Source of the DNA: a virus
Lineage: Duplodnaviria; Heunggongvirae; Uroviricota; Caudoviricetes
Length of the DNA: 43,098 nucleotides
Virus record (IMG/VR): IMGVR_UViG_2541047775_000007
Direction: 5' to 3' (one strand)
Of this stretch, positions 1 to 14,275 are shown in pieces (positions within the stretch are counted from its first letter, which is position 1; each line of letters opens with the position of its first letter). Below the pieces are notes generated by a model, which saw only the letters and a program-made list of their open reading frames with translations, was not told the origin of the DNA and did not search any database. The position numbers and the translations under genes are program-made.

Positions 1-1127
<1,127 letters not shown>

Positions 1128-1622: not shown

Positions 1623-2162
1623 ATGAAGAAAGTTTTTCTTTGCGCCATCTTAGCCTCCTTAAGCTATCCGGCTATCGCCTCATCATTGCAGGATCAACTC
1701 TCTGCTGTCGCAGAAGCGGAACAGCAAGGTAAAAATGAAGAGCAAAGGCAGCATGACGAATGGATCGCGGAGCGCAACAGGGAAATCCAGCAAGAGAAGC
1801 AACGTCGCGCAAACGCCCAGGCCGCCGCTAACAAAAGAGCGGCAACGGCAGCGGCAAATAAGAAAGCTCGTCAGGATAAACTGGATGCCGAAGCCACTGC
1901 GGACAAAAAACGCGATCAAAGTTATGAAGATGAGCTACGCAGCTTAGAGATTCAGAAACAAAAACTGGCGCTGGCGAAAGAAGAAGCCCGCGTTAAGCGC
2001 GAAAACGAATTTATCGATCAGGAACTGAAGCACAAAGCTGCGCAAACCGATGTGGTGCAATCTGAAGCTGACGCAAACAGGAATATGACTGAGGGCGGTC
2101 GCGATCTGATGAAAAGCGTGGGCAAAGCAGAAGAGAACAAATCGGACAGCTGGTTTAACTAA
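1623..2162 (+). CDS. hypothetical secreted protein (signal peptide plus charged coiled-coil, 179 aa)
   Basis: Strong RBS caggaggagtc before ATG; N-terminal MKKVFLCAILASLSYPAIA signal peptide; K/E/A/Q-rich heptad-like body; terminator follows. Confidence 0.75.
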   Translation: MKKVFLCAILASLSYPAIASSLQDQLSAVAEAEQQGKNEEQRQHDEWIAERNREIQQEKQRRANAQAAANKRAATAAANKKARQDKLDAEATADKKRDQSYEDELRSLEIQKQKLALAKEEARVKRENEFIDQELKHKAAQTDVVQSEADANRNMTEGGRDLMKSVGKAEENKSDSWFN

Positions 2163-3090: not shown

Positions 3091-3573
3091 CTATCTGGTC
3101 AGGGTGTCGTACTGTTTTTCACAGACTCTTCCGGCTTCGGCTGCCCGGTCAGCATACTCTGCCAGTTGTCTGTTTCTCTCGAGAGATTTACTGAGCACGT
3201 CGGCAAGCAAAACTCCGGTGTCTGCGGCTGACGTCCCAGCGCCGACAATGGCGTTATACTGCCTGAGCTGCTCACGGATGGCAACGAGCTGTTGCTGCAA
3301 CCGGCCAGCGCGAGCGGCAGCATCAAGAGCATCATTGCGCGCCTGGTCGATCCTCTGCTGCGCTTCACGTTCATTGATCGCTTTCTCCTGTTCGTAGTGC
3401 TGACGAATTCTCTCATCTTCGGTTTTGCGGTCTTCTTTCGCCTGCGCATACCCGGCGTCGTACTGACGACTGCCGTGTACACTCCAGGCAACAACTCCTG
3501 ATATGACCAGAACAGCAAGCACCGCCATGATAATCAACTGTTTCCGGTATGCTTTTACGAATGCCCAGATCAT
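3091..3573 (-). CDS. Rz-like i-spanin (160 aa)
   Basis: N-terminal TM helix, then charged coiled-coil; directly downstream of and overlapping the endolysin gene (ATGA overlap). Confidence 0.7.
3099..3335 (-). CDS. Rz1-like o-spanin lipoprotein embedded in the +1 frame of Rz
   Basis: Inside the 3099..3518 [16 protein letters not shown] gives a signal peptide with lipobox followed by a Pro-rich short mature peptide; fully embedded in Rz in a different frame. Confidence 0.5.
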   Translation of the reverse strand: MMLLMLPLALAGCSNSSLPSVSSSGSITPLSALGRQPQTPEFCLPTCSVNLSRETDNWQSMLTGQPKPEESVKNSTTP

Positions 3574-4199
3574 ACCGCCAGCACCTTACTGGCATTGATG
3601 TATCGCGCGCGCCGGTCGTCGATGCCGTTCCGGCCACCATTGATAATCAGAGTTACACGTGCAATATCGCCGGTATACTTCATGCATCCTTTGCTGGCAA
3701 AGAACCACGCCGCGCTACGAGCCGCGTATTCGTCCTGCGCCAGCAGTTCAGGACTCTCCAGCAGGTCAACCTTAAGACCGTTTCCACAGTCACGATAGTT
3801 ATTCAAACCGGTAACCTGGATAAGCCCGCGCCCACGGTAGTTCCAGCCATCACCAGGGGCATTGTTCCCCATGCGTTTGCTGTACACCAGATTGGCAATC
3901 GCTCTCTGGCGCTCAAGTGGCAATGGTGGTTCGCCTGCACGTCGCCCCAATGCGTTGGCCTGTCCCTGAGTGAGACGCCCAGCCCGAACAAAGTTAGCCA
4001 GTCCGCTGACGCTGTAGTTGAAATTCTCCTGCAACCGGGTGAAGCCTCCAGACTCATGCCCGACCTGAGCAATAAACATAGCCTGATCTTCTGGTTTGCT
4101 GATACCAAACTCTTTCATCGCAGAAGTTATATGCGAGAACCAGCGTGCGGCCAGTGCCTCGCTGATACCAGCAGCTCGCTGGAATTGTTTAATCTCCAT
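3570..4199 (-). CDS. endolysin, glycoside hydrolase family 19 (chitinase-like) type
   Basis: Motifs [20 protein letters not shown] are characteristic of GH19 phage endolysins; no N-terminal hydrophobic SAR segment. Confidence 0.88.
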
Positions 4200-4497
4200 G
4201 TTTAGACCTCGATACTTTGAAAATTTGAACGACGTTACCGCGCGTTTTAATAACCGCAGCTAGCATGACAGCGTTGATAATGACCTCAGATAAATCCACA
4301 GCCATTGGCGTACGTAACCAGATTGCATAGGCGACACGAACAGGAATACTGGCCGCAGCAACAATCAGGAAATAAGCAAGCCATCCTCCCCACCTTCGGT
4401 GTTGAGAGCCGTTACGCCGGAATGTGACAACGCGAATTGCTATGCCAGTGCAAATAACTGCATTGGTGATAAGCAAAAAAAACTCATGCGTTACCAT
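4189..4497 (-). CDS. holin-like membrane protein (3 predicted TM helices, charged C-terminus)
   Basis: Hydrophobic segments and C-terminal [19 protein letters not shown] tail; overlaps endolysin start. Confidence 0.5.
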
Positions 4498-4897
4498 CGT
4501 CTTTTCTCCCCGGAATTAACTCGCGTGGATTATCGGAACGGTGATAGAGCCATATACCAATACGCACAGCGACAATTGCTGACACGAATGCGCCTGCAGA
4601 GAAAACAATCCCTTTTTCAAAAGAGTCCTGCGTGATGGTAGGGATCAGGCTGGCTATGCCGATAAGAATTGATGCTGCTGGTTTGTAAAAGAGAAGGCCG
4701 CAAAGAAAGCTGAGCATCGACAGGAGCACCCGGCGACGGATGGGGTACTCTACTGCAGAGGTAACAAAAATTACCGCTCCAGCCAAAGCACCCAAAGCAA
4801 CCTCAGGAGGAACTCCTGCTATCACCGCCGCCAGAGAACTCATGCTAAGCCACTGATTTAAAGTTTCACTGGTTAGTTGAGCTGACATGTTTTCCAC
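4484..4897 (-). CDS. holin/antiholin-like membrane protein (3-4 TM helices)
   Basis: RBS ggtgga before ATG; multiple hydrophobic helices and charged C-terminal tail; sits upstream of the holin-like gene and endolysin. Confidence 0.5.
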   Translation of the reverse strand: MENMSAQLTSETLNQWLSMSSLAAVIAGVPPEVALGALAGAVIFVTSAVEYPIRRRVLLSMLSFLCGLLFYKPAASILIGIASLIPTITQDSFEKGIVFSAGAFVSAIVAVRIGIWLYHRSDNPRELIPGRKDDGNA

Positions 4898-5090: not shown

Positions 5091-5387
5091 TCAAATAGAG
5101 AAATAAACACAAAAACAAAAAACAACAGGAACAGCAAAATCCAACAGACTTCCCACATCCCACACGCGTGGATCAAAACCTCCCCACCACGGCATGTTGA
5201 TACGTTTCCCTTTCCCAAACTTTTCTATCCAGCGATATTCTGCCTGGGTGTGTTCACGCGCAATGAAGAACGTACAACCGGCTATCGCACCGTAAGCCCA
5301 GTTTCCGGTAAAAATACCAACCAGTACCTGAGCCACAAAAGCGCAAAGCGAGTGAAGAAATGGAGTGACATCAATGCTCTTAATCAT
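5091..5387 (-). CDS. small membrane protein (98 aa), translationally coupled to the tailspike gene
   Basis: Start codon overlaps tailspike stop (ATGA); 2-3 hydrophobic segments. Confidence 0.5.
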   Translation of the reverse strand: MIKSIDVTPFLHSLCAFVAQVLVGIFTGNWAYGAIAGCTFFIAREHTQAEYRWIEKFGKGKRINMPWWGGFDPRVWDVGSLLDFAVPVVFCFCVYFSI

Positions 5388-7573
5388 GAAACTTCCCCAT
5401 TGGTTGAAAATATGGCTCCTCCAACGCCAAGTGTATTTCGTGTTGTGCTCAACCTCAGAGGGCTGGAGTCAGAATTAGAATATCCTGTAGCAGAAATAAA
5501 AGATCCTCCACTAATAGTCAACTGCGGAACATCGGCTATATCTGAATAAGTTCTGTCAGCAACAGTATTATTTATAGCCACATATGATCCAAAAAAACTT
5601 CTTATTGTTTGGTTTTTAACTTTACTTCCTTCAATGGTTATCCTACTACCACAGTCGGCAATAAATCCTGAATCTGCATCCAGCGTTGCATTCATAAAAG
5701 AAGCTTCAGATCTCTCTACATCAATCCATCTAATATCTTTTGTGGGATTTGCACCAAATACATGACAAATATTAGAGTTAAACCTTACACCATCTTGGAG
5801 GTGCATTAATTTTTTTATATCTGTACCCCATAGCCTTGGAAAATTAACAGATGCTCCTGCATGGCAATCAAATCCCAGCTCAGCCCCTGAGATATCTACA
5901 GCCTTTCCTGAAATAACAGCACCAGTGTCTGCATTAACGGCTGTTCCACAATTGCGCATATCATTACCAGCAACATCAACGCAACCCGCACCATCAATAC
6001 GCACACCAAGTGCACATCCATAAAAACCTTTTTCAATATTTGGTTCAAGGACTTTACCACTTGTTTCTGCATCACTTTCTTCAACGTCATGTCGTCTTGC
6101 ATCAACATATGCTGTATGAATGCAGGTTAATCCACGATATGAGCAATGTATAGTTTTATGGTCGCGTATATTAACATTTGAACCATCTCTTACATTCCAT
6201 CCTATATAACAATAGCTTGCACTTGACCCCTGAAAATCTGCTTTAACATTATAAATACAATTAACTGACGCAACCGTACTCTCTGTGCACCGTTCAAACT
6301 TGCTTACAGGCATTGATGCCTTGACATTATTTACCAGTTGCAGGGAAGAGTATCTGCTATAAGAAAAATCACATACGTAATACCCTTCTGGCATATATGC
6401 AGCAACACTTTCCTCATCAGGAGCACATCCGGTATGATATGCACTAATTTTTGCACCAAAACTACCATGAATTCCAACGTAGAACTTTCGAGCACCTGAA
6501 TACGGATAGAAATTAAGTTCAGCTTTTTGAGTTACAATAAATGCACAAACATCGCTATCATCTCTATTTTCTTCGATCTGAATAGCAAATACAGGACTTT
6601 TTGCTGCATCGCAAATGTAAAATAAATACTTGTATTCGTAATACGTTCTAACGATTTTAGTAAACAAACGAGTGTCAGAGAAAACCACTGAGTCTTCTGA
6701 TGTTATTTTAATCCAAGACAAATCAACACCTGAACTGAATTCAATTTGATAGTTGATAATATGCCCGGTCTTAATTCTTATTTCGCAGAAAGCATTACCA
6801 CCATCCCACATAGGTCTCATTGACTGGGCTGCAATGATTGCATCTTTGAGTGTAGGGTAATCACCCCATTCGCCAACAGTAATAACAAAAGTATAATATG
6901 AGTTAAAAACAGCGGCATTTTTGCCTTTGGATATCAACTCCTTAATCATAAAAATATTATCTTCGTAATCACAAGGAGAAATTATATCCCTCATTTTGCT
7001 TTGAAATGTTCGTTGTCTTGCCCCGCTTCCTGACGGTATAAACCAACCAAAACCACCAACAACCCCGGCGATTGCAGCATCGACATAATTACGCATTGAG
7101 CGATTATTTACAGCATCCTGCTCAAGTGATGGATCTGCAAGGTTAGAAATTCTGTTTTGCTTTGCATCGTAATATTTTGCAAGCAGAGAGGGCTTCATCA
7201 ATGCACGTCTGAACCACCCAAAACATTGCTGGATCAGCATCGTCAGGTAGTCAAAGGCATCTTCATGCACTTCGGGGAAAAATTTTCCCTGATTGCGAAG
7301 GTCTGTCTCCTGCACTACATCAAGCACACGATCTATCGTAATTCGCCATCCAGTAGCAAGCGGAGACGGAAGAACCACAGAACCGCCACTATAAGTGCCC
7401 GCCCCAGTTACCGTATAACCGGTATCCAGGACCAATTCTGTTACGTTCCCGTTCAGGTCAGACACCTGAACAACCAGGTCTGATTTTCTGAAAATTCGAA
7501 AAGTATACGGAAACGATGTCGTAACGCCGTTACCGGTGTATTCGTTGTGGTCAACTTCGGTTGAGACCGTCAT
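5384..7573 (-). CDS. tailspike / tail fibre with conserved N-terminal virion-attachment domain and probable beta-helix receptor-binding/depolymerase body (729 aa)
   Basis: N-terminus MTVSTEVDHNEYTGNGVTTSFPYTFRIFRKSDLVV matches the conserved podovirus tail-fibre/tailspike N-domain motif; AT-rich body with many Cys and Asn/Gly repeats; RBS ggag before ATG. Confidence 0.8.
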   Translation of the reverse strand: MTVSTEVDHNEYTGNGVTTSFPYTFRIFRKSDLVVQVSDLNGNVTELVLDTGYTVTGAGTYSGGSVVLPSPLATGWRITIDRVLDVVQETDLRNQGKFFPEVHEDAFDYLTMLIQQCFGWFRRALMKPSLLAKYYDAKQNRISNLADPSLEQDAVNNRSMRNYVDAAIAGVVGGFGWFIPSGSGARQRTFQSKMRDIISPCDYEDNIFMIKELISKGKNAAVFNSYYTFVITVGEWGDYPTLKDAIIAAQSMRPMWDGGNAFCEIRIKTGHIINYQIEFSSGVDLSWIKITSEDSVVFSDTRLFTKIVRTYYEYKYLFYICDAAKSPVFAIQIEENRDDSDVCAFIVTQKAELNFYPYSGARKFYVGIHGSFGAKISAYHTGCAPDEESVAAYMPEGYYVCDFSYSRYSSLQLVNNVKASMPVSKFERCTESTVASVNCIYNVKADFQGSSASYCYIGWNVRDGSNVNIRDHKTIHCSYRGLTCIHTAYVDARRHDVEESDAETSGKVLEPNIEKGFYGCALGVRIDGAGCVDVAGNDMRNCGTAVNADTGAVISGKAVDISGAELGFDCHAGASVNFPRLWGTDIKKLMHLQDGVRFNSNICHVFGANPTKDIRWIDVERSEASFMNATLDADSGFIADCGSRITIEGSKVKNQTIRSFFGSYVAINNTVADRTYSDIADVPQLTISGGSFISATGYSNSDSSPLRLSTTRNTLGVGGAIFSTNGEVS

Positions 7574-7677
7574 GTTAAATCTCCAGATAGTCGCAGCACC
7601 CGTTGCGCCGCATATCTGGTTATTCTATTACCTGAAAAACCACATATGGATAAAAAGGCTGTAAATACGAATAGATA

Positions 7678-7692
7678 TTACCTTTCAGGTAA
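7678..7692. promoter_or_regulatory. operator-like palindrome TTACCTTTCAGGTAA (motif A)
   Basis: Perfect 5-bp inverted repeat with 5-bp spacer; one member of a family of at least 13 near-identical sites. Confidence 0.6.
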
Positions 7693-7729
7693 TTTGCAAA
7701 ACGTGCTGGATAGCAAACAAATTATTTGC

Positions 7730-7749
7730 TACTGTATAAATATACAGTT
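7730..7749. promoter_or_regulatory. LexA (SOS) box TACTGTATAAATATACAGTT
   Basis: CTGT-N8-ACAG core at 7732-7747 with AT-rich spacer, 18/20 match to the E. coli LexA consensus; 20 bp upstream of the start codon at 7769. Confidence 0.75.
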
Positions 7750-7768
7750 ATTGCATGGAGAAGATAAG

Positions 7769-8026
7769 ATGCAGCGGTATCACTATCCACTGGAAGACGG
7801 ATTTACCGAAAGGATTCACACGCCGGGAGGCGTCAGGTCACTGGTGGAGGGATCGCACTTGATGAAATTACTCCGGGATCTCGATAAGGATGGATTTAAT
7901 GTCGATGGCCCACTTGCCGAACTGACTGCACTGATTAACTACGTTACCAGCTCACAGATGTCTATGCGGGATCTGCAAACACATCTCGACTATTGTGCCG
8001 AACAATTACGAAAACAAACCCGGTAA
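7769..8026 (+). CDS. small antirepressor-like protein (85 aa), paralog of the C-terminal domain of the 9177..9833 antirepressor
   Basis: RBS ggag 8 nt before ATG; sequence aligns with the Ant C-terminus (shared GV..L.E.S.LM.LL..L..DG..V.G..AELT....Y......RD.QTH..Y); LexA box immediately upstream. Confidence 0.65.
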   Translation: MQRYHYPLEDGFTERIHTPGGVRSLVEGSHLMKLLRDLDKDGFNVDGPLAELTALINYVTSSQMSMRDLQTHLDYCAEQLRKQTR

Positions 8027-8030
8027 ATTT

Positions 8031-8052
8031 AAAGGCCGCAAGAGCGGCCTAT
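8031..8052. terminator. bidirectional intrinsic terminator (aggccgc-aaga-gcggcct) between convergent genes
   Basis: 7-bp GC stem flanked by T/A-rich runs on both sides; nearly identical hairpin recurs at 11282-11299. Confidence 0.55.
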
Positions 8053-8777
8053 CGTTTCGCTTTGTGCTCGTCCCAGCACGTTTTGCACCATGCCATTAAG
8101 CCATCCGCATTTTGATTATTAGGGTAAAAGCTTGTTCGTTTTCTGCGGACATTACAAATTGGGCACCACTTCATATGGCGTGTATTCTTTGGGCCATCGA
8201 GACACCTTGCACACCACTTAGTCAATCCATCTGGATTTTTTGACGATTTCCTGAATTTTTCATATGGTAGGTTTATTCTGCATCGCAAGCACTGCTTGCT
8301 ACCACTTGAAACTCTGTTAGCTGATTCTTCTTTTGGCGGCGATACAGAAGGTATTCTTGCTGGCTCTGATACTGCCTGAGGTGCTTTTTTAGATGACTGA
8401 GACGATATGTCATCACCAGGGAATCTTCCATGATATGCCGGACGCATTGACACTCCAGGTGGAAGCTCAGCTGTAAACGGCTTTGGCTGAATCAGTTGCC
8501 TCTCTTTTGCTAACTCCTGCTGTTTATAATATGTCTGGATTACCGCACTATCATAAGCAGGAGGTGCGGAAATATTAGGCGCATTACCTCCAGTTTTTTG
8601 AAACTGAGTAGAGGTGTGTTCTATCACCTGTGTACGATTAATCGTTATCTCCCCATCTTCGGTCTTTATCGTTTTGTTATGATTAACGACCGTACGATCA
8701 GAGATCTTAGTCTTGTTCTGGTTGATAACGTAAATAATCACCGCAACCACACCAACAACTATCCAGAAAACTTCCAT
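8049..8777 (-). CDS. membrane-anchored protein with C-terminal tandem CxxC zinc-ribbon-like motifs (242 aa)
   Basis: RBS gaggaaaag before ATG; N-terminal TM helix; long low-complexity linker; C-terminus CLRC...NPDGLTKWCARC...WCPIC...NADGLMAWCKTC (duplicated DGL..WC..C unit). Confidence 0.7.
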   Translation of the reverse strand: MEVFWIVVGVVAVIIYVINQNKTKISDRTVVNHNKTIKTEDGEITINRTQVIEHTSTQFQKTGGNAPNISAPPAYDSAVIQTYYKQQELAKERQLIQPKPFTAELPPGVSMRPAYHGRFPGDDISSQSSKKAPQAVSEPARIPSVSPPKEESANRVSSGSKQCLRCRINLPYEKFRKSSKNPDGLTKWCARCLDGPKNTRHMKWCPICNVRRKRTSFYPNNQNADGLMAWCKTCWDEHKAKR

Positions 8778-8797
8778 TGCTTTTCCTCACAATAACA

Positions 8798-8812
8798 TTA
8801 CCTTAAAGGTAA
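8798..8812. promoter_or_regulatory. operator-like palindrome TTACCTTAAAGGTAA (motif A)
   Basis: Perfect palindrome 21 bp upstream of the minus-strand start at 8777. Confidence 0.6.
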
Positions 8813-8861
8813 TATCTTGCTTTCAGGTGATCAAGCGTTAAACGCAATCAACCAAATACGG

Positions 8862-8905
8862 TTGATTTTAATATTTCTTCGCGTTTATCATTACCTTTGC
8901 GGTAA
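8862..8905 (+). promoter_or_regulatory. candidate promoter (TTGATT -35) with overlapping operator TTACCTTTGCGGTAA (8891-8905)
   Basis: -35-like hexamer followed by a motif A palindrome; lies about 270 bp upstream of the antirepressor gene. Confidence 0.45.
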
Positions 8906-8942
8906 ATTTACATTGCACTCCTCTTGTGCCATAGTAATCGGG

Positions 8943-9018
8943 CACTGGCAAAATCCAGTGCCGGGATTGGTCTCCCGGATTACTAAGTGGCGCATACCAC
9001 GCCAGACGTGGTTTTTTT
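8943..9018 (+). promoter_or_regulatory. structured leader: three consecutive hairpins ending in an intrinsic terminator (ccacg-ccaga-cgtgg plus T7)
   Basis: Hairpins cactgg/ccagtg (8943-8960), ccggga/tcccgg (8961-8978), and terminator 8996-9018; no credible ORF. Confidence 0.45.
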
Positions 9019-9176
9019 ATGCGTATAGCACAGTCATGCCAGAATTATGGTGGGCTGAATGGGGGTCCGAAAGGACGCCGGTACCACTTAGGCCGGTAAG
9101 ACCAACTCCGTTCAGTTCACCACCATCTGATTGGTCTCAGCGGTGGTGATGTAATTCGCTAAGTGGAGACGCCATC

Positions 9177-9833
9177 ATGAACGCTCAACTCATCCCCGTA
9201 TTCAACGGCACTATATCTAACGAAACAGCCCTACTTTGTAATGCCCGCGATCTGCACACTTTTTTAGGTGTTAAAAAGGTGTTTGCAGCATGGATTACAA
9301 ATCGCATATCAGAATACGAATTCATTGAAAATCAAGACTATATTTTGCTTTCCAATTTGGGAAAGCAAACATCTGGTAGAGGCGGCCACAACCGCAAAGA
9401 GTACCACCTCACCCTTGATACAGCCAAAGAGCTGGCGATGGTCGAGCGTAACGAAAAAGGTCGCCAGGTGCGACGCTACTTCATTGAATGCGAGAAACGT
9501 TTAAGACAACAAGAAACAAAAGTGGAGAAGGTCTTGTCAGGCTTCATGCCCGCCATTATGGAGGCGATCAAGCTGGAAGACAAAAAAGAATACAGCGCCC
9601 CACTGAAGCCCGGCTACCGCAGCCTGATTCATTCTCCGTCTGGTGTTCTCGGACTGACGGAGAACTCACTGCTGATGAATCTGCTGAACCAGTTACAGGA
9701 AGACGGGCACGACGTATCGGGCGCGGCGGCGGAGCTGACCACCATGTTCTGCTACATCGTCGGTGTGAGCAAATGCCTGCGTGATATCCAGACGCACGCG
9801 GAGTACATCAACGACAAGGCAGGGTTCTTCTGA
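9177..9833 (+). CDS. phage antirepressor, AntA/AntB-type N-terminal domain plus C-terminal domain shared with the 7769..8026 protein (218 aa)
   Basis: N-terminus MNAQLIPVFNG...KVFAAWITNRISEYEFIENQDYIL...RYFIECEKRL resembles AntA/AntB antirepressor family; intrinsic terminator at 9843-9865 follows. Confidence 0.7.
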   Translation: MNAQLIPVFNGTISNETALLCNARDLHTFLGVKKVFAAWITNRISEYEFIENQDYILLSNLGKQTSGRGGHNRKEYHLTLDTAKELAMVERNEKGRQVRRYFIECEKRLRQQETKVEKVLSGFMPAIMEAIKLEDKKEYSAPLKPGYRSLIHSPSGVLGLTENSLLMNLLNQLQEDGHDVSGAAAELTTMFCYIVGVSKCLRDIQTHAEYINDKAGFF

Positions 9834-9947: not shown

Positions 9948-10157
9948 ATGGGATTTTGGTTCGCTCGTACAAAAACGAGGGATAATGCACCCAGCCCTCA
10001 GGCAAAAAATGCAGAAGTTCCGGCGTCAGCGCAGGTTAACAAGCGTGGTGGTGTGTATATCTCATCACAGCAAATTTCTGAGCTTCCTGAGGTTAAGGAG
10101 ATGCGTCGTCTCGCTGCTGCAATCGTTAAACAGGATCTTGCCACTGTAAGGAAATAG
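9948..10157 (+). CDS. small hydrophilic protein (69 aa), first gene of a two-gene cassette
   Basis: Very strong RBS gaggaggagat before ATG; stop overlaps start of downstream gene. Confidence 0.6.
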   Translation: MGFWFARTKTRDNAPSPQAKNAEVPASAQVNKRGGVYISSQQISELPEVKEMRRLAAAIVKQDLATVRK

Positions 10158-11023
10158 TGTTGTTAGCTCTTCTAATTATCCCCATTCTGGTTAGTGGTTA
10201 TATTATGATAACCGCTAACCAGTATCATTATTTCCGTTTATACCGACATGAAGGCCAGCTTCTTTATATGAAAGTAGCTGCATTAGGTACATATTGCCTT
10301 GTTGCTTCGGTAATAATTGCCGCATTTATAAAATATAAATATCCTGATTTTCACCTAGTTCACGATATGGTGGAAACTTTTAATGTAACGTCAAAACCAG
10401 AAACAGATAGAATTTACATGTGGCTGCTTCTTCTCTCAGCCACATCCATTTGCTTCTCTTTGTGTTATGTGTCTGTTGTGTGGGTGAAAGATTTTCTTCT
10501 TGGTTGTTTTTATAAACGTGATATTTACGAGCAAAAAACAGAGGCAATGAAGGCCAGAGTACTGCGAAAAACTTACTCGCAAGGTTCTTTAGACTTACTA
10601 TTGCTTGATGCTATTGAATCGGATCCTAAACGACCAATGCTGATTACTTTATCATCAAACAAAGTGTATGTTGGAATAATAAATGGTTCTGGTGAACCAA
10701 CGGAAAATCAGGGTCCGCATCAGCACATATCTTTTGTTCCTTTAATGTCAGGATACAGGAACAAAGACAACTTATCTGTCACATTCACTAATGCTTATCC
10801 AGGAGAAATACAGGTCAAGCGGACTGCAGCAATAAGAGGAATTAGCAGAAAGAAAGTGCCAGGACTTGAGATCATGGTGTCTATTGACGAAATAAGTTAT
10901 ATATCATGGTTTGATTTTGAAGTATATAAAGCAACAAATAACAAAGTAGAATCCAGGGGGCACGTTATTCGTGTTACCAAAAATGGAAGAAATATATATC
11001 AAAGAAATAGCAAAAAAGAATAG
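10157..11023 (+). CDS. AT-rich membrane protein (288 aa; about 3 N-terminal TM helices plus about 170-aa C-terminal domain), candidate superinfection-exclusion/defence protein
   Basis: GTG start with RBS aaggaaa, overlapping upstream stop; markedly lower GC than flanking phage genes; strong terminator downstream. Confidence 0.6.
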   Translation: MLLALLIIPILVSGYIMITANQYHYFRLYRHEGQLLYMKVAALGTYCLVASVIIAAFIKYKYPDFHLVHDMVETFNVTSKPETDRIYMWLLLLSATSICFSLCYVSVVWVKDFLLGCFYKRDIYEQKTEAMKARVLRKTYSQGSLDLLLLDAIESDPKRPMLITLSSNKVYVGIINGSGEPTENQGPHQHISFVPLMSGYRNKDNLSVTFTNAYPGEIQVKRTAAIRGISRKKVPGLEIMVSIDEISYISWFDFEVYKATNNKVESRGHVIRVTKNGRNIYQRNSKKE

Positions 11024-11043
11024 CCCGCGCTGCGGGCTTTTTT
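11023..11043 (+). terminator. rho-independent terminator (gcccgc-gct-gcgggc plus T6)
   Basis: GC stem followed by TTTTTT immediately after the 10157..11023 stop. Confidence 0.7.
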
Positions 11044-11115: not shown

Positions 11116-11277
11116 ATGAAAAAAGCATTTGCTGCACTGTTCGTTTTGTTGTCTCTGGTAGCTTCAACTCAGGCCTTTGCCGGTCGTTGTCAGCACGACA
11201 GCGATACTGCCGCTGACGGCTCCCGCTGCGGTGGGCGTTCTGCGGATTCCCGCCCGGGTGGCGGTGGCATTCGTTAA
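11116..11277 (+). CDS. small secreted Gly/Cys-containing peptide (53 aa precursor, about 31 aa mature)
   Basis: MKKAFAALFVLLSLVASTQAFA signal peptide, then GRCQHDSDTAADGSRCGGRSADSRPGGGGIR; candidate promoter TTGACG-N17-ATAGAT upstream; weak RBS. Confidence 0.45.
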   Translation: MKKAFAALFVLLSLVASTQAFAGRCQHDSDTAADGSRCGGRSADSRPGGGGIR

Positions 11278-11299
11278 AAACAAGGCCGCGAAAGCGGCC
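11274..11299 (-). terminator. intrinsic terminator (aggccgc-gaaa-gcggcct) ending the minus-strand late operon
   Basis: 7-bp GC stem; T-run on the minus strand; separates convergent transcription units. Confidence 0.6.
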
Positions 11300-11300
11300 T

Positions 11301-11312
11301 GTGACATGTCAC
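11301..11312. other. perfect 12-bp palindrome GTGACATGTCAC (motif C copy 1)
   Basis: Overlaps the stop codon of 11309..11605 and abuts the terminator; same palindrome at 31123-31134 and near-identical at 28858-28869. Confidence 0.6.
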
Positions 11313-11605
11313 GTCCCTTTTCTGAATGATAGCCATTCGAAAAATGATGACATTCCACCGCAGACAATAGCAAAGATGATCCCACCAAAGAAGAGAAGGC
11401 CAGCCTGCCACCACTCCCACCGCCATACATCCACAGCGCCAACCATACCAACAATCGCTCCAACAAATGGAATATAGCTCACGATGAAAGCAATGGGGGC
11501 TGCAATTATCCAGTGCAATCCCCACCATGATTCAAGCCCAGCCATAATTGCTGCCAACTGAAAAAGACCAACGACGATATAAACAATGAATCCTATAGCT
11601 TGCAT
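11309..11605 (-). CDS. small integral membrane protein (98 aa, about 3 TM helices, Trp-rich)
   Basis: RBS aggtga before ATG; highly hydrophobic; last gene of the late operon. Confidence 0.6.
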   Translation of the reverse strand: MQAIGFIVYIVVGLFQLAAIMAGLESWWGLHWIIAAPIAFIVSYIPFVGAIVGMVGAVDVWRWEWWQAGLLFFGGIIFAIVCGGMSSFFEWLSFRKGT

Positions 11606-11617
11606 GTAGTCACCTAT

Positions 11618-11791
11618 TTACCCAGTAAAAATAAGAGGCCTCCCCTCAATAAGGCTTGCAACAAGAACTACTCCCTGCACAACAAAGATGAACCAGCAAA
11701 TAGCTTGAGTCTGAGGGTTAAGAAAATATTTGTAGCGGTCAATAAATAACAATACACCAGAAATTATCACACTCAAAATAATTAAAAACAC
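11618..11791 (-). CDS. candidate small membrane protein (about 57 aa), below the ORF-track size cut-off
   Basis: GTG start 4 nt after RBS aaggaag, directly after the stop of 11801..14275; two hydrophobic segments. Confidence 0.35.
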   Translation of the reverse strand: MFLIILSVIISGVLLFIDRYKYFLNPQTQAICWFIFVVQGVVLVASLIEGRPLIFTG

Positions 11792-11800
11792 AACACTTCC

Positions 11801-14275
11801 TTATTGCGGAGTGACATCCTGAGGTCGCCACCAGTATGTCTGGTTAAACTCTTTCTTCGAACGTTGCTCCATTTTACGCAAATAGCCTGGTGAAAAATAC
11901 TCCTGCATCTGGTTAAAGATCATGTGATCGAGAGCCGCCTTCAAGTACCAGAGATTCGCACCAGGCATCAAACCTTTCCCCAGCTTCACCAGATCACCAC
12001 CAGTCTGCTCACTCTTCCCTTCCACAGCATTTAACGGTATGCCCTGAGCAATCTTCACTACGTCATCAACTAGACCAGCTACCGGGCCAAGCATCGACGC
12101 CAGCGCGCCGCTTCCGTACCTAGTGTGATCTGACAATAAAAAGTCACCGTAAAGGCCAAGACCACCACCTTTCAGTAGAGCACCAAGCCAGAATTTTGCG
12201 GCATCTTCTCCTGTCATCTCTCGAGGATTACGACCAGACGCAAGGTCGTTAAGTTGTTGCGACAAAGCGCCAAGAATGGTCGTACTGGCAATAAACGTCG
12301 CAATATATGCCGCACGCCCACCAGCAGACGGCATACCCATAGCGCGTGACCAGTGACGCATAACAACCGAGATAGGGAACGATTTAAACAGGAAAACACT
12401 TCTCGTTAATTCACCTTTCCATGTTCCACGCTGAATACCAGAACCGGTTATCAGTTGCTCACGTGCTCCCGGTGTAATAACAGCCATATCAACTTCTTCA
12501 GTTACGGCACCGAGCAGTTTACGCATTGCCTCAAATTTCACGCGTTCAGGCTCACCAAGATGTTTAACTGCTGAATCAGGGATACGCATAATGCTTTCCG
12601 GTGTCAGCATCGTATTATTACCGTTCCCCCAGTCCTCCTGTTGCGCCAACTTCCATACGCTCCAGTCTGTGTCAGTAATCCCTTTGCTTTTCAGGATACG
12701 AAAATCAGAGTCATCGAGGCGACGAAGGTCTGGTGTCCGTGACACTACTTCTCCCAGGCTTCCCATCATGGTTACGCCATAGGCGCGCTTGTGCGCATCT
12801 GACCATGCTGTAAGCCCACTGGCACGCATTACCGCCGTTGCAGCCCAACGAGACACAGACGGCCCCATATTATCCATCGCCCAGCGGTTAACGCTGCCAA
12901 GTAGAGATTCCATCGCCAGACCAGCGCGGCGCGCCCGCGCAAGTTCTGTACGGTTCGTTGGGTCCATAGCTTCAAGCTGGTTGCGGAATAACTGGTTCAT
13001 TGGAAGGTTGGTAACCTTCGCAGACAGATACATGGTTCCAAGATCAGAGAACGATGACAGCAACGCGGATCCGAGTCTGCTGGCAACCAGCCAGTTGCGG
13101 ATATTGTCAGACCATCGCGCGATGTGCGGATTCGCTACAGGCTGTGTCTTTCCGGAAATAAAGTTGTACAGATTCTCTGTGTTGTTCGCCAGCCGCTCGA
13201 CTTTACCGGTTTTACTCGGGTTAGCTGTTGCCGTTTCTGCCTTCACCTGATCAAGAAGAGAGCGGAAAACATGATCGGGGTTTGGACCATATGTTTCCAC
13301 CAGTGCAATATCTTTACTGATACCTTCCAGGTGACCGACCATGATTTCCCATAGAGAGCGATCGCCATAAAGTTGCTGATATTGCAGATAGGAATCTGCA
13401 TCTTTGAAATGTATCTGTCGTGATGCATTACCACGGTTAGCACGTGCGCCGGAAATTCGCATTCCGGTATCAGTAAGCTTATTCAGCCCACCAGTAGCGA
13501 TCGTGTTATAAGCCTCTCCAAGAAATGCAGACAACTCGGCATCGTTCATCAGTTGTCCATCGGCTCGGGTATAATATTTGCGATCCAGCTTACCTATAAC
13601 ATCGCTAACCCATTTATCTTTTGATACCGCCCCAACCTTTTCCATAGAATGATGTTGAGGGATCCCCCAGTTTTCGAGATAGCCAATGTCCCCACCAGCA
13701 TCATTAAACCGGCGGCGCAGTAGCTCTGTCACTTCTCTCCACGCCTTAGCACCTTTTCTTGCTTTAGCATTGCCAGTATTTTGCCCCAGCATTTCATATA
13801 CCAGGTCACGTACGCCCGCTTCATCTTCAAACAGACCAAAAAAGCGAGGATCAACTGCTTCGAATGCCTCCTGCAATTGACTCAATGCATAATCACGGGT
13901 GGCTTTTGTTCTGGATTCAACAGAGAGGAAATTCGATTTACCGTCTGCATTAAAAGCAATAGTACGGTTAAGAGCGCCAAGTTTCCCATCAGCCCCTTGA
14001 TAGCTATTGATAAATTTATCCAATCTCTGACGTGCGGCTATAGTGAGGGCCACACGACGTTTCTTTAATGCCGCTTCTCGCTGTAATTCTTCAGATGCCA
14101 ATTGTGCTGCACGATACAGCCGCTCTGATTCGGAAAGTTGTCGCCACGACATCGGGTCATCACGAGCAATGGAGCGCATATTTCGATAAATGCGGTCTTC
14201 AATGTTCTGTATTTCTCGCGCCGTTAACGTGCGCTGCGCCGCCTGCTGGACCGCTTGTATACATTCCTGTCTCAT
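11801..14275 (-). CDS. large internal virion / ejection protein (824 aa)
   Basis: Position at the end of a T7-like structural gene order; size and composition fit internal core proteins. Confidence 0.55.
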   Translation of the reverse strand: MRQECIQAVQQAAQRTLTAREIQNIEDRIYRNMRSIARDDPMSWRQLSESERLYRAAQLASEELQREAALKKRRVALTIAARQRLDKFINSYQGADGKLGALNRTIAFNADGKSNFLSVESRTKATRDYALSQLQEAFEAVDPRFFGLFEDEAGVRDLVYEMLGQNTGNAKARKGAKAWREVTELLRRRFNDAGGDIGYLENWGIPQHHSMEKVGAVSKDKWVSDVIGKLDRKYYTRADGQLMNDAELSAFLGEAYNTIATGGLNKLTDTGMRISGARANRGNASRQIHFKDADSYLQYQQLYGDRSLWEIMVGHLEGISKDIALVETYGPNPDHVFRSLLDQVKAETATANPSKTGKVERLANNTENLYNFISGKTQPVANPHIARWSDNIRNWLVASRLGSALLSSFSDLGTMYLSAKVTNLPMNQLFRNQLEAMDPTNRTELARARRAGLAMESLLGSVNRWAMDNMGPSVSRWAATAVMRASGLTAWSDAHKRAYGVTMMGSLGEVVSRTPDLRRLDDSDFRILKSKGITDTDWSVWKLAQQEDWGNGNNTMLTPESIMRIPDSAVKHLGEPERVKFEAMRKLLGAVTEEVDMAVITPGAREQLITGSGIQRGTWKGELTRSVFLFKSFPISVVMRHWSRAMGMPSAGGRAAYIATFIASTTILGALSQQLNDLASGRNPREMTGEDAAKFWLGALLKGGGLGLYGDFLLSDHTRYGSGALASMLGPVAGLVDDVVKIAQGIPLNAVEGKSEQTGGDLVKLGKGLMPGANLWYLKAALDHMIFNQMQEYFSPGYLRKMEQRSKKEFNQTYWWRPQDVTPQ

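Follow-up and report, generated by a model that had tools for sequence, protein, structure and literature searches.

p57 and p98, two small predicted membrane proteins encoded in a probable exchangeable slot behind the ejection-protein gene of Uetakevirus prophages

Small hydrophobic accessory proteins encoded at the end of a late operon are familiar in temperate phages. Here we describe two of them, p57 and p98, whose genes lie on the minus strand of a 43,098-nucleotide stretch of viral DNA (IMG/VR record IMGVR_UViG_2541047775_000007; hereafter the window), directly behind the gene for a gp17-like internal virion protein, and which very probably belong to an exchangeable accessory cassette. 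The closest described systems are exclusion proteins. SieA of phage P22 is a three-helix protein of the inner membrane that prevents injection of DNA and whose gene is placed between the tailspike gene and the last ejection gene; escape mutations map to the ejection proteins gp16 and gp20, and a subset of relatives carries SieA, whose sequence falls into three widely differing types (PMC10883804). The exclusion protein gp15 of phage HK97, also small and of the inner membrane, is encoded within a late operon; it blocks genome entry and has bacterial homologues outside prophages (PMC3594210).

The locus in the window resembles both systems in part. Like SieA, p98 is a small inner-membrane protein with three predicted helices, and the genes for p57 and p98, in a temperate short-tailed phage, have gp17 (11801..14275), the last ejection gene, on one side and the antirepressor/tailspike region (5384..9833) on the other. 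Unlike p98, SieA is 162-164 aa long and carries a cytoplasmic C-terminal FxRYPxEAxxFNK motif, which is absent from p98 and from p57; furthermore, sieA runs convergently and is transcribed from a promoter of its own, whereas the p57 and p98 genes point the same way as the late operon and are packed tightly behind it. HK97 gp15, a YebO-like protein and the first moron to be described, shares with p57 and p98 its small size, its inner-membrane location and its place in a late structural operon, but it belongs to a different family, is equipped with a promoter and a terminator of its own, and is a gene that the prophage expresses; here no promoter was found.

Closer to the phage in question, epsilon15 gp18 (64 aa) and phiV10 p21 (46 aa) are encoded in the same slot as p57, on the same strand and before the same type of terminator. 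The three proteins have a common design of a short N-terminus, a helix, a short basic loop and a second helix within 46-64 aa, but gp18 and p21 have no detectable sequence similarity to p57 (z 0.7-0.9) and no p98-like partner. The small hydrophobic O-antigen polymerase inhibitors epsilon15 gp22 and Iap of Pseudomonas phage D3 also recall p57, in that gp22 is a small two-helix membrane protein from a serotype-converting phage of the same genus; gp22, however, is encoded at a different locus beside the phage wzy, and p57 has no wzy-like neighbour. An assignment of p57 to the gp22 type was rejected, as hhalign returned no alignment and a comparison with shuffled sequences gave z=1.15. What our analysis adds to this background is a firm case for an overlooked 57-codon gene, a defined slot, and the placement of p98 in a large family that has neither a name nor a function; both proteins are already in the databases as hypotheticals.

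Two genes between gp17 and the late terminator

This part of the window, which belongs to an epsilon15/phiV10-like E. coli prophage, shares 99.5-99.7% identity with phiv142-3 and HEMP4, two phages of Escherichia; on either side it matches phiV10 and further phages of Uetakevirus, the genus of temperate short-tailed phages of the epsilon15 type. The ejection operon's last large gene encodes the 824-aa gp17-like protein and ends with TAA at 11803-11801. This protein is 99% identical to phiV10 p20 and matches phrog_684 ('virion structural protein', E=0) in PHROGs, and epsilon15 gp17 has been assigned as a homologue of T7 internal virion protein D (PMC4819975), so the label of an ejection-protein operon is a fair one. 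At the junction between the gp17 stop and the p57 start, which reads TAAGGAAGTGTTGTG, a Shine-Dalgarno sequence, AAGGAAG (11796..11802), overlaps the gp17 TAA and stands four bases before the GTG (11791-11789) that opens p57 (11618..11791, 57 codons, TAA at 11620-11618). The gap between the two genes is 9 nt. A second gap, of 12 nt, separates p57 from p98 and contains the Shine-Dalgarno sequence AGGTGA (11610..11615); p98 (11309..11605, 98 aa) runs from the ATG at 11605 to the TGA at 11311-11309. The p98 stop overlaps a perfect 12-bp palindrome, GTGACATGTCAC (11301..11312), and immediately beyond it a terminator scan identified the bidirectional intrinsic terminator AGGCCGC-GAAA-GCGGCCT (11283..11300), a 7-bp G+C-rich hairpin followed by a T run, which closes the late operon on the minus strand and a convergent 53-aa gene on the plus strand. 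An inverted-repeat scan found nothing beyond the terminator and the palindrome.

A preliminary description, made from the letters alone, had placed here a ribosome-binding site (aaggaag) and a GTG opening a frame of about 57 codons with two hydrophobic helices right after the stop of the 824-aa protein, then a 98-aa Trp-rich three-helix membrane protein, and had taken the two as closing the ejection-protein operon. All of these elements are present on the minus strand at the positions given above, the helices are borne out by the models described below, and the terminator follows directly on p98.

Several lines of evidence show, at the level of sequence, that p57 and p98 are both real coding genes under purifying selection. 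Conservation of the small frame in relatives had been proposed as a check, and the frame proved to be kept in five genera: among 30 distinct nucleotide versions, p57 is intact and of the same length in 26, and it starts with GTG in 20 and with TTG in nine. The four exceptions are one version that is a codon longer, one with an altered C-terminal end, one fragmented record and one diverged homologue (L082) that could not be read in register. Across the fetched loci, dN/dS for p57 is 0.18-0.26 at a dS of 0.6-0.8. Between the window and Klebsiella phage BUCT711, p57 is 80% identical in nucleotides (gp17, 74%), and 18 of the 35 differences fall at third codon positions; the BUCT711 gene has a TTG start and a different yet purine-rich ribosome-binding site, AAGGGGGA. 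BUCT711 retains the spacer sequence between p57 and p98; a 1-nt insertion in this spacer, seen in phiv142-3 and in some of the viral contigs, leaves both frames intact. Protein searches recovered a p57 family of 23 clusters, all 52-58 aa, from Escherichia, Citrobacter, Salmonella, Enterobacter and Klebsiella. The p57 protein has two hydrophobic stretches, and its AlphaFold2 model is a helical hairpin (helices 2-23 and 26-49, pLDDT 74). With a GC content of 36.2% the gene differs from gp15-17 (49.5-51%). It has no match in Pfam (scanned at E up to 1), NCBIfam or PADLOC, and in Rfam, at a relaxed threshold, the region gives chance-level matches only. Inside the 3′ end of p57, at 11632..11648 on the minus strand, a weak hairpin with a T run resembles a terminator; it is probably a chance feature, since it is not conserved in BUCT711.

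The claim that p57 is unannotated largely holds: the gene is missing from the annotation of phiv142-3, BUCT711, YDC107_2 and RefSeq NZ_CP033884, but NCBI has the protein from some genomes as a 'hypothetical protein'. Routine annotation thus misses a 57-codon gene with a GTG or TTG start, even though the whole p57 and p98 stretch occurs in 205 of 5,426 complete E. coli genomes; at least part of the region, typically the conserved flanks, is present in 467, and epsilon15/phiV10-like prophages occur in about 9% of complete E. coli genomes. A literature search found no paper that mentions the p57 or p98 proteins or their accessions.

Constraint on p98 is very strong, with a dN/dS of 0.02-0.05 across the fetched loci; against BUCT711 the gene is 82% identical in nucleotides, and 45 of 52 differences are at third codon positions. 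Its GC content (46.5%) is only slightly off that of gp15-17. The protein has eight Trp among its 98 residues (8%) and three hydrophobic stretches, and its AlphaFold2 model (pLDDT 90.4) consists of helices 2-28, 32-42/46-59, with a kink at Pro46, and 65-97. Together with the hairpin model of p57, these features show p57 and p98 to be predicted membrane proteins both by sequence and by model. In the GenBank record of phiv142-3, Orf12 (6060..6416) is annotated as 118 aa, because the 1-nt spacer insertion gives it an upstream start in a different frame; the form that is conserved has 98 aa.

p98 matches PHROG 3075, a group of unknown function, from end to end (residues 1-98 against profile positions 1-98 of 98, E=1.6e-54). 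A profile search of 1.84 billion representative proteins extended this family to 748 clusters, defined at 50% identity, at E<=1e-3 and to 325 at E<=1e-10. Positions Q16, A19, P46, G49, G53, A57, W61, W63 and F72 are near-invariant in the family; p98 shares these residues with PHROG 3075 and the wider three-helix family, and nothing sets it apart from them. Most members are about 100 aa long, and a small number have DUF805, RDD, MORN or zinc-ribbon domains joined to them; a Pfam scan for co-domains in 118 distant members found sporadic fusions only and was uninformative. No Pfam, NCBIfam or PADLOC model matches the family significantly, and a fold search of the PDB and BFVD with the confident p98 model gave nothing at E<1. 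Isolated phages seldom carry a member (6-7 of 50,697 records by tblastn, distant members included), and the family is mostly found in prophages and bacteria. One metagenomic protein of 427 aa (P0068) consists of four tandem copies of a p98-like three-helix unit. In Microvirga (L103 5308..5646) and in another alphaproteobacterium (L105 5304..5594), the p98 homologue is followed by a small membrane protein with an 'FPYGYY..LRIV' motif, which may be a conserved partner of p98 outside the enteric phages.

A variable slot at the end of the gp15-gp17 operon

What lies between gp17 and the terminator differs sharply among otherwise very similar phages. We took 80 viral contigs in which the C-terminus of gp17 is at least 97% identical to that in the window and measured the content from the gp17 stop to the conserved terminator. 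The p57 and p98 pair (501-502 bp) occupies this slot in 36 of the 80 loci, and a single 46-aa two-helix protein of the phiV10 p21 type (about 170 bp) in 28. Eight loci contain a small hydrophobic ORF split over two frames together with a 126-aa lipoprotein, as in phage ZX5 (609 bp), one contains the 126-aa lipoprotein alone (401 bp), and in the remaining seven the content was not resolved. The left junction is sharp: all alleles share the sequence ...CCGCAATAAGGA, with a TAAGGA core, and diverge directly after it, so that the AAGGA core common to the p57 Shine-Dalgarno sequence forms the conserved left edge. On the right, the palindrome GTGACATGTCAC and, after it, GGCCGC-N4-GCGGCC are present in every allele, and the terminator, which is annotated at the equivalent place in phiV10 and epsilon15, is kept in all aligned alleles. 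The palindrome, which has the same sequence at the right edge in each of the four aligned alleles, could be a protein-binding site, a recombination site or merely a part of the terminator region.

Different slot contents thus occur in phages with gp17 proteins that are 97-100% identical. Furthermore, p57 and p98 are absent from the isolated phages phiV10, ZX5, PAS61 and SPN1S, whose gp17 is 95-100% identical to that of the window, and also from epsilon15. Every product seen in the slot is envelope-targeted, with membrane helices or signal peptides or as a lipoprotein; the paper on phage ZX5 is silent on the slot. Like a moron in the Juhala/Hendrix definition, the pair is present in some phages and absent from close relatives at the same site, here with four alleles and sharp junctions. 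Morons may also be recognised by a base composition unlike that of the flanking genes, from which p57 deviates clearly in GC content and p98 only slightly, and by a promoter and terminator of their own; a terminator is present, doubling as that of the late operon, and a promoter was not found in our scan. Taken together, we consider it very probable that p57 and p98 are real accessory membrane-protein genes and that the pair is one version of a swappable accessory cassette, located where the gp15-gp17 operon of Uetakevirus prophages ends on its 3′ side. A variable slot with such sharp bounds could also be used to find further accessory genes in this genus.

The two-helix hairpins that recur behind gp17 are not all of one origin. 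A Smith-Waterman comparison against shuffled sequences related p57 to the hairpin of the L082/ZX5 type, with 36% identity to the intact 54-aa L082 version and the same topology (z=10.5). A common origin for all of the hairpins was rejected, since phiV10 p21 and epsilon15 gp18 are not related to p57. In ZX5 (561..763), in L107 and in seven other IMG/VR loci, the ZX5-type hairpin gene is divided between two reading frames around a run rich in A; this split, common to nine loci, marks either a pseudogene or a frameshift site.

In contrast to the variable content upstream of it, p98 recurs widely. In Cronobacter, Kosakonia and a Salmonella prophage, p98 homologues (58-66% identity) stand immediately behind homologues of gp17 whose identity, where measured, is 23-26%; the gap is 1 nt in Cronobacter and Kosakonia, and the Salmonella prophage has a T7-like gene order. 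Elsewhere a p98 of 94% identity adjoins gp17 homologues only 23% identical. The gene upstream of p98 may encode a 103-aa two-helix protein, a signal-peptide protein of 102/123 aa or of 175 aa, a YecR-like lipoprotein or a diverged 54-aa hairpin, and conversely, in Enterobacter and Salmonella, p57 can precede an unrelated 92-aa two-helix protein in place of p98. This 92-aa replacement has a highly charged C-terminal tail in the two loci L016 and L017. One metagenomic prophage has a lone p98 beside an integrase, with its own upstream region and with no gp17 nearby. These comparisons show that, across related prophages from many Enterobacterales, p98 has long been the last gene here. In Yersinia kristensenii (L189 4539..5297), a 145-aa gene on the opposite strand intervenes between the large ejection gene and the p98 homologue, so that this homologue is not simply translationally coupled to the late operon.

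The same data bear on a role in the ejection machine. That p57 and p98 are not core parts of it is well supported, because both are absent from phages with 95-100% identical gp17, because p98 pairs with a gp17 only 23% identical, because some alleles have no hairpin (L186, Cronobacter), and because the strong hydrophobicity of both proteins favours membrane insertion over packaging.

Possible functions of p57 and p98

By analogy with the systems described above, we tentatively favour, as possible rather than probable, a role for p57 and p98 as an inner-membrane block to DNA entry, that is, in superinfection exclusion. The two proteins would be translated independently and inserted into the inner membrane of the cell that produces them; as both are almost entirely hydrophobic, insertion there would be expected in preference to a place in the lipid-free capsid. 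From the inner membrane they may interfere with the formation or the use of the trans-envelope DNA conduit of an incoming phage. The outcome would be exclusion at the DNA-entry step, as with P22 SieA, HK97 gp15 or T4 Imm, with p57 and p98 in none of those families. Such a role stays plausible because P22 sieA is similarly placed and because HK97 gp15 is a small inner-membrane protein of a late operon. If p57 and p98 do block DNA entry, a widespread and unnamed membrane-protein family would gain a function, and the pair would be a second exclusion system directed at the ejection conduit of short-tailed phages, comparable with SieA. A broader proposal, which we regard as doubtful, would make the slot a dedicated hot-swap site for small envelope proteins that control DNA entry; p98 might then be the first recognised inner-membrane gatekeeper of its three-helix family, with the hairpins, lipoproteins and secreted proteins as its variable partners.

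A number of results weigh against exclusion. p98 shows no similarity to SieA (hhalign, alignment A3: probability 0.2%, 8 aligned columns), and neither protein matches Imm_superinfect or YebO in a Pfam scan at E up to 1, or any PADLOC model. Both genes are co-oriented with gp17 and tightly packed behind it, in contrast to the convergent sieA with its own promoter. A promoter scan of the minus strand over 11800-12600, the 800 nt upstream, gave no sigma-70-like site, though weak or non-consensus promoters could escape it; a lone TAAAAT, seen by eye at 11877-11872, has no -35 element. A sliding-window analysis of synonymous sites along gp17 gave no more than a slight increase in conservation at the 3′ end, and no clear excess there. 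Given the gaps of 9 and 12 nt and the negative promoter scan, we infer that p57 and p98 share the transcript of the late operon. By default one would therefore expect late expression in the lytic cycle, and expression in the lysogen is not supported. In addition, conservation is much higher in p98 than in gp17 (61% and 23%, respectively, in Cronobacter), and this slower evolution suggests a conserved host target or a general membrane role instead of co-evolution with ejection proteins. gp17 shows no diversification alongside the cassette alleles, and the p98 family, rare in isolated phages, is widespread in bacteria and sometimes fused to DUF805 or RDD domains.

Some of these same results lend themselves to a different reading, namely that p57 and p98 are lysogenic-conversion (moron) proteins that alter the host envelope for stress, serum or toxin tolerance and have no part in exclusion. 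Lambda Bor and Lom and the small envelope stress proteins of E. coli offer a comparison. The envelope targeting of all slot products, the deviant GC content of p57, the many bacterial p98 homologues outside phages with their fusions to general membrane domains, and the very strong conservation of p98, which fits a conserved host target, are all consistent with this reading. It is nonetheless unlikely in our estimation: the scan found no promoter that would allow expression from a repressed prophage, no link to a phenotype emerged, and the recurrent placement behind ejection genes across distant phages would have to be a coincidence. Roles of this kind have been noted for morons (PMC3594210). 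If p57 and p98 did prove to be ordinary envelope morons, a tidy annotation correction would still result.

Co-transcription with the late genes, the simplest reading of the layout, would also suit late membrane proteins that modulate lysis or the membrane of the infected cell in the manner of a holin, antiholin or pinholin. p98 has the size of a class I holin (about 70-150 aa) and three helices, for which the positive-inside rule predicts an N-out/C-in topology; it matches Phage_holin_5_2 weakly and below threshold (E=0.027; 15.2 bits, where the gathering score is 29.2), and its 92-aa replacement in L016 and L017 carries a holin-like charged C-terminal tail. But the Phage_holin_5_2 match is not significant, the C-terminus of p98 itself is short and weakly charged (R95 and K96 only), and the slot also carries lipoproteins and secreted proteins. 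Moreover, the phage already has a full lysis cassette at 3570..4897 (Phage_holin_8, Phage_holin_3_7 and an endolysin), about 6.4 kb away and not adjacent to p57 and p98. We thus judge a function in lysis quite unlikely.

A service to the phage's own gp17, whether as a membrane-side chaperone, as self-protection during assembly or as a helper in conduit formation, appears improbable. The tight coupling to gp17, best seen in Cronobacter and Kosakonia, where the p98 homologue begins 1 nt past the gp17-like stop, would fit such a role, as would the recurrence of the association with very divergent gp17 homologues and the hydrophobic segments near the C-terminus of gp17. Yet isolated phages with 95-100% identical gp17 dispense with both proteins, p98 is also found far from any gp17, and the pairing of near-identical p98 with 23%-identical gp17 indicates that the two do not co-evolve.

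The preliminary description had offered ejection-channel components as one possibility, and this is poorly supported, since the pair is swapped behind a gp17 that stays 97-100% identical and is absent from phiV10, ZX5, PAS61 and SPN1S. A virion-borne channel component would sit naturally at the end of an operon of internal virion proteins, and a small two-helix protein does follow gp17 in epsilon15 (gp18), in phiV10 (p21) and here; however, these hairpins are not detectably homologous (z at most 1 for p57 against p21 or gp18), are missing from some alleles (L186, Cronobacter), and, being nearly all hydrophobic like p98, would be expected to enter the membrane during synthesis and not to be packaged. 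With the cassette exchanged while gp17 remains unchanged, we hold a place in the virion to be highly improbable. Finally, we give next to no credence to the idea that p57 is not a gene and that its 174 nt are only a spacer or regulatory region before p98, for although the start is non-ATG, the length is below usual annotation cut-offs, most records leave it unannotated and a weak terminator-like hairpin lies near its 3′ end, that hairpin is not conserved in BUCT711, Rfam has no match, the frame and length are kept in five genera at a dN/dS of about 0.2, the Shine-Dalgarno sequence and start codon persist despite base changes, and the 36%-identical L082 homologue has the same topology (z=10.5).

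Neighbouring genes

Two genes on the plus strand converge on the late operon beyond the terminator. The nearer (11116..11277) encodes a 53-aa protein with a signal-peptide-like N-terminus that matches phrog_14503 ('membrane associated protein', moron category), and it ends, together with p98, at the one shared bidirectional terminator. It is also present in TL-2011b, in BUCT711 and in E. coli chromosomes, where its neighbours vary and include, for example, a YafO toxin or a DUF2335 protein. The farther gene (10157..11023) encodes a 288-aa protein with hydrophobic N-terminal helices and a soluble C-terminal part; it has a GC content of 36%, its own terminator at 11022-11038 and a match to phrog_3630 (unknown function), with zero matches in Pfam, NCBIfam and PADLOC. 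In orientation and position this gene is closer to P22 sieA than either p57 or p98. At the very start of the window, a DDE transposase gene (1..981, plus strand; DDE_Tnp_1 and DUF772) lies next to the gene for a DUF5384 protein (1623..2162), and its position there indicates that an insertion sequence abuts the lysis end of the prophage.

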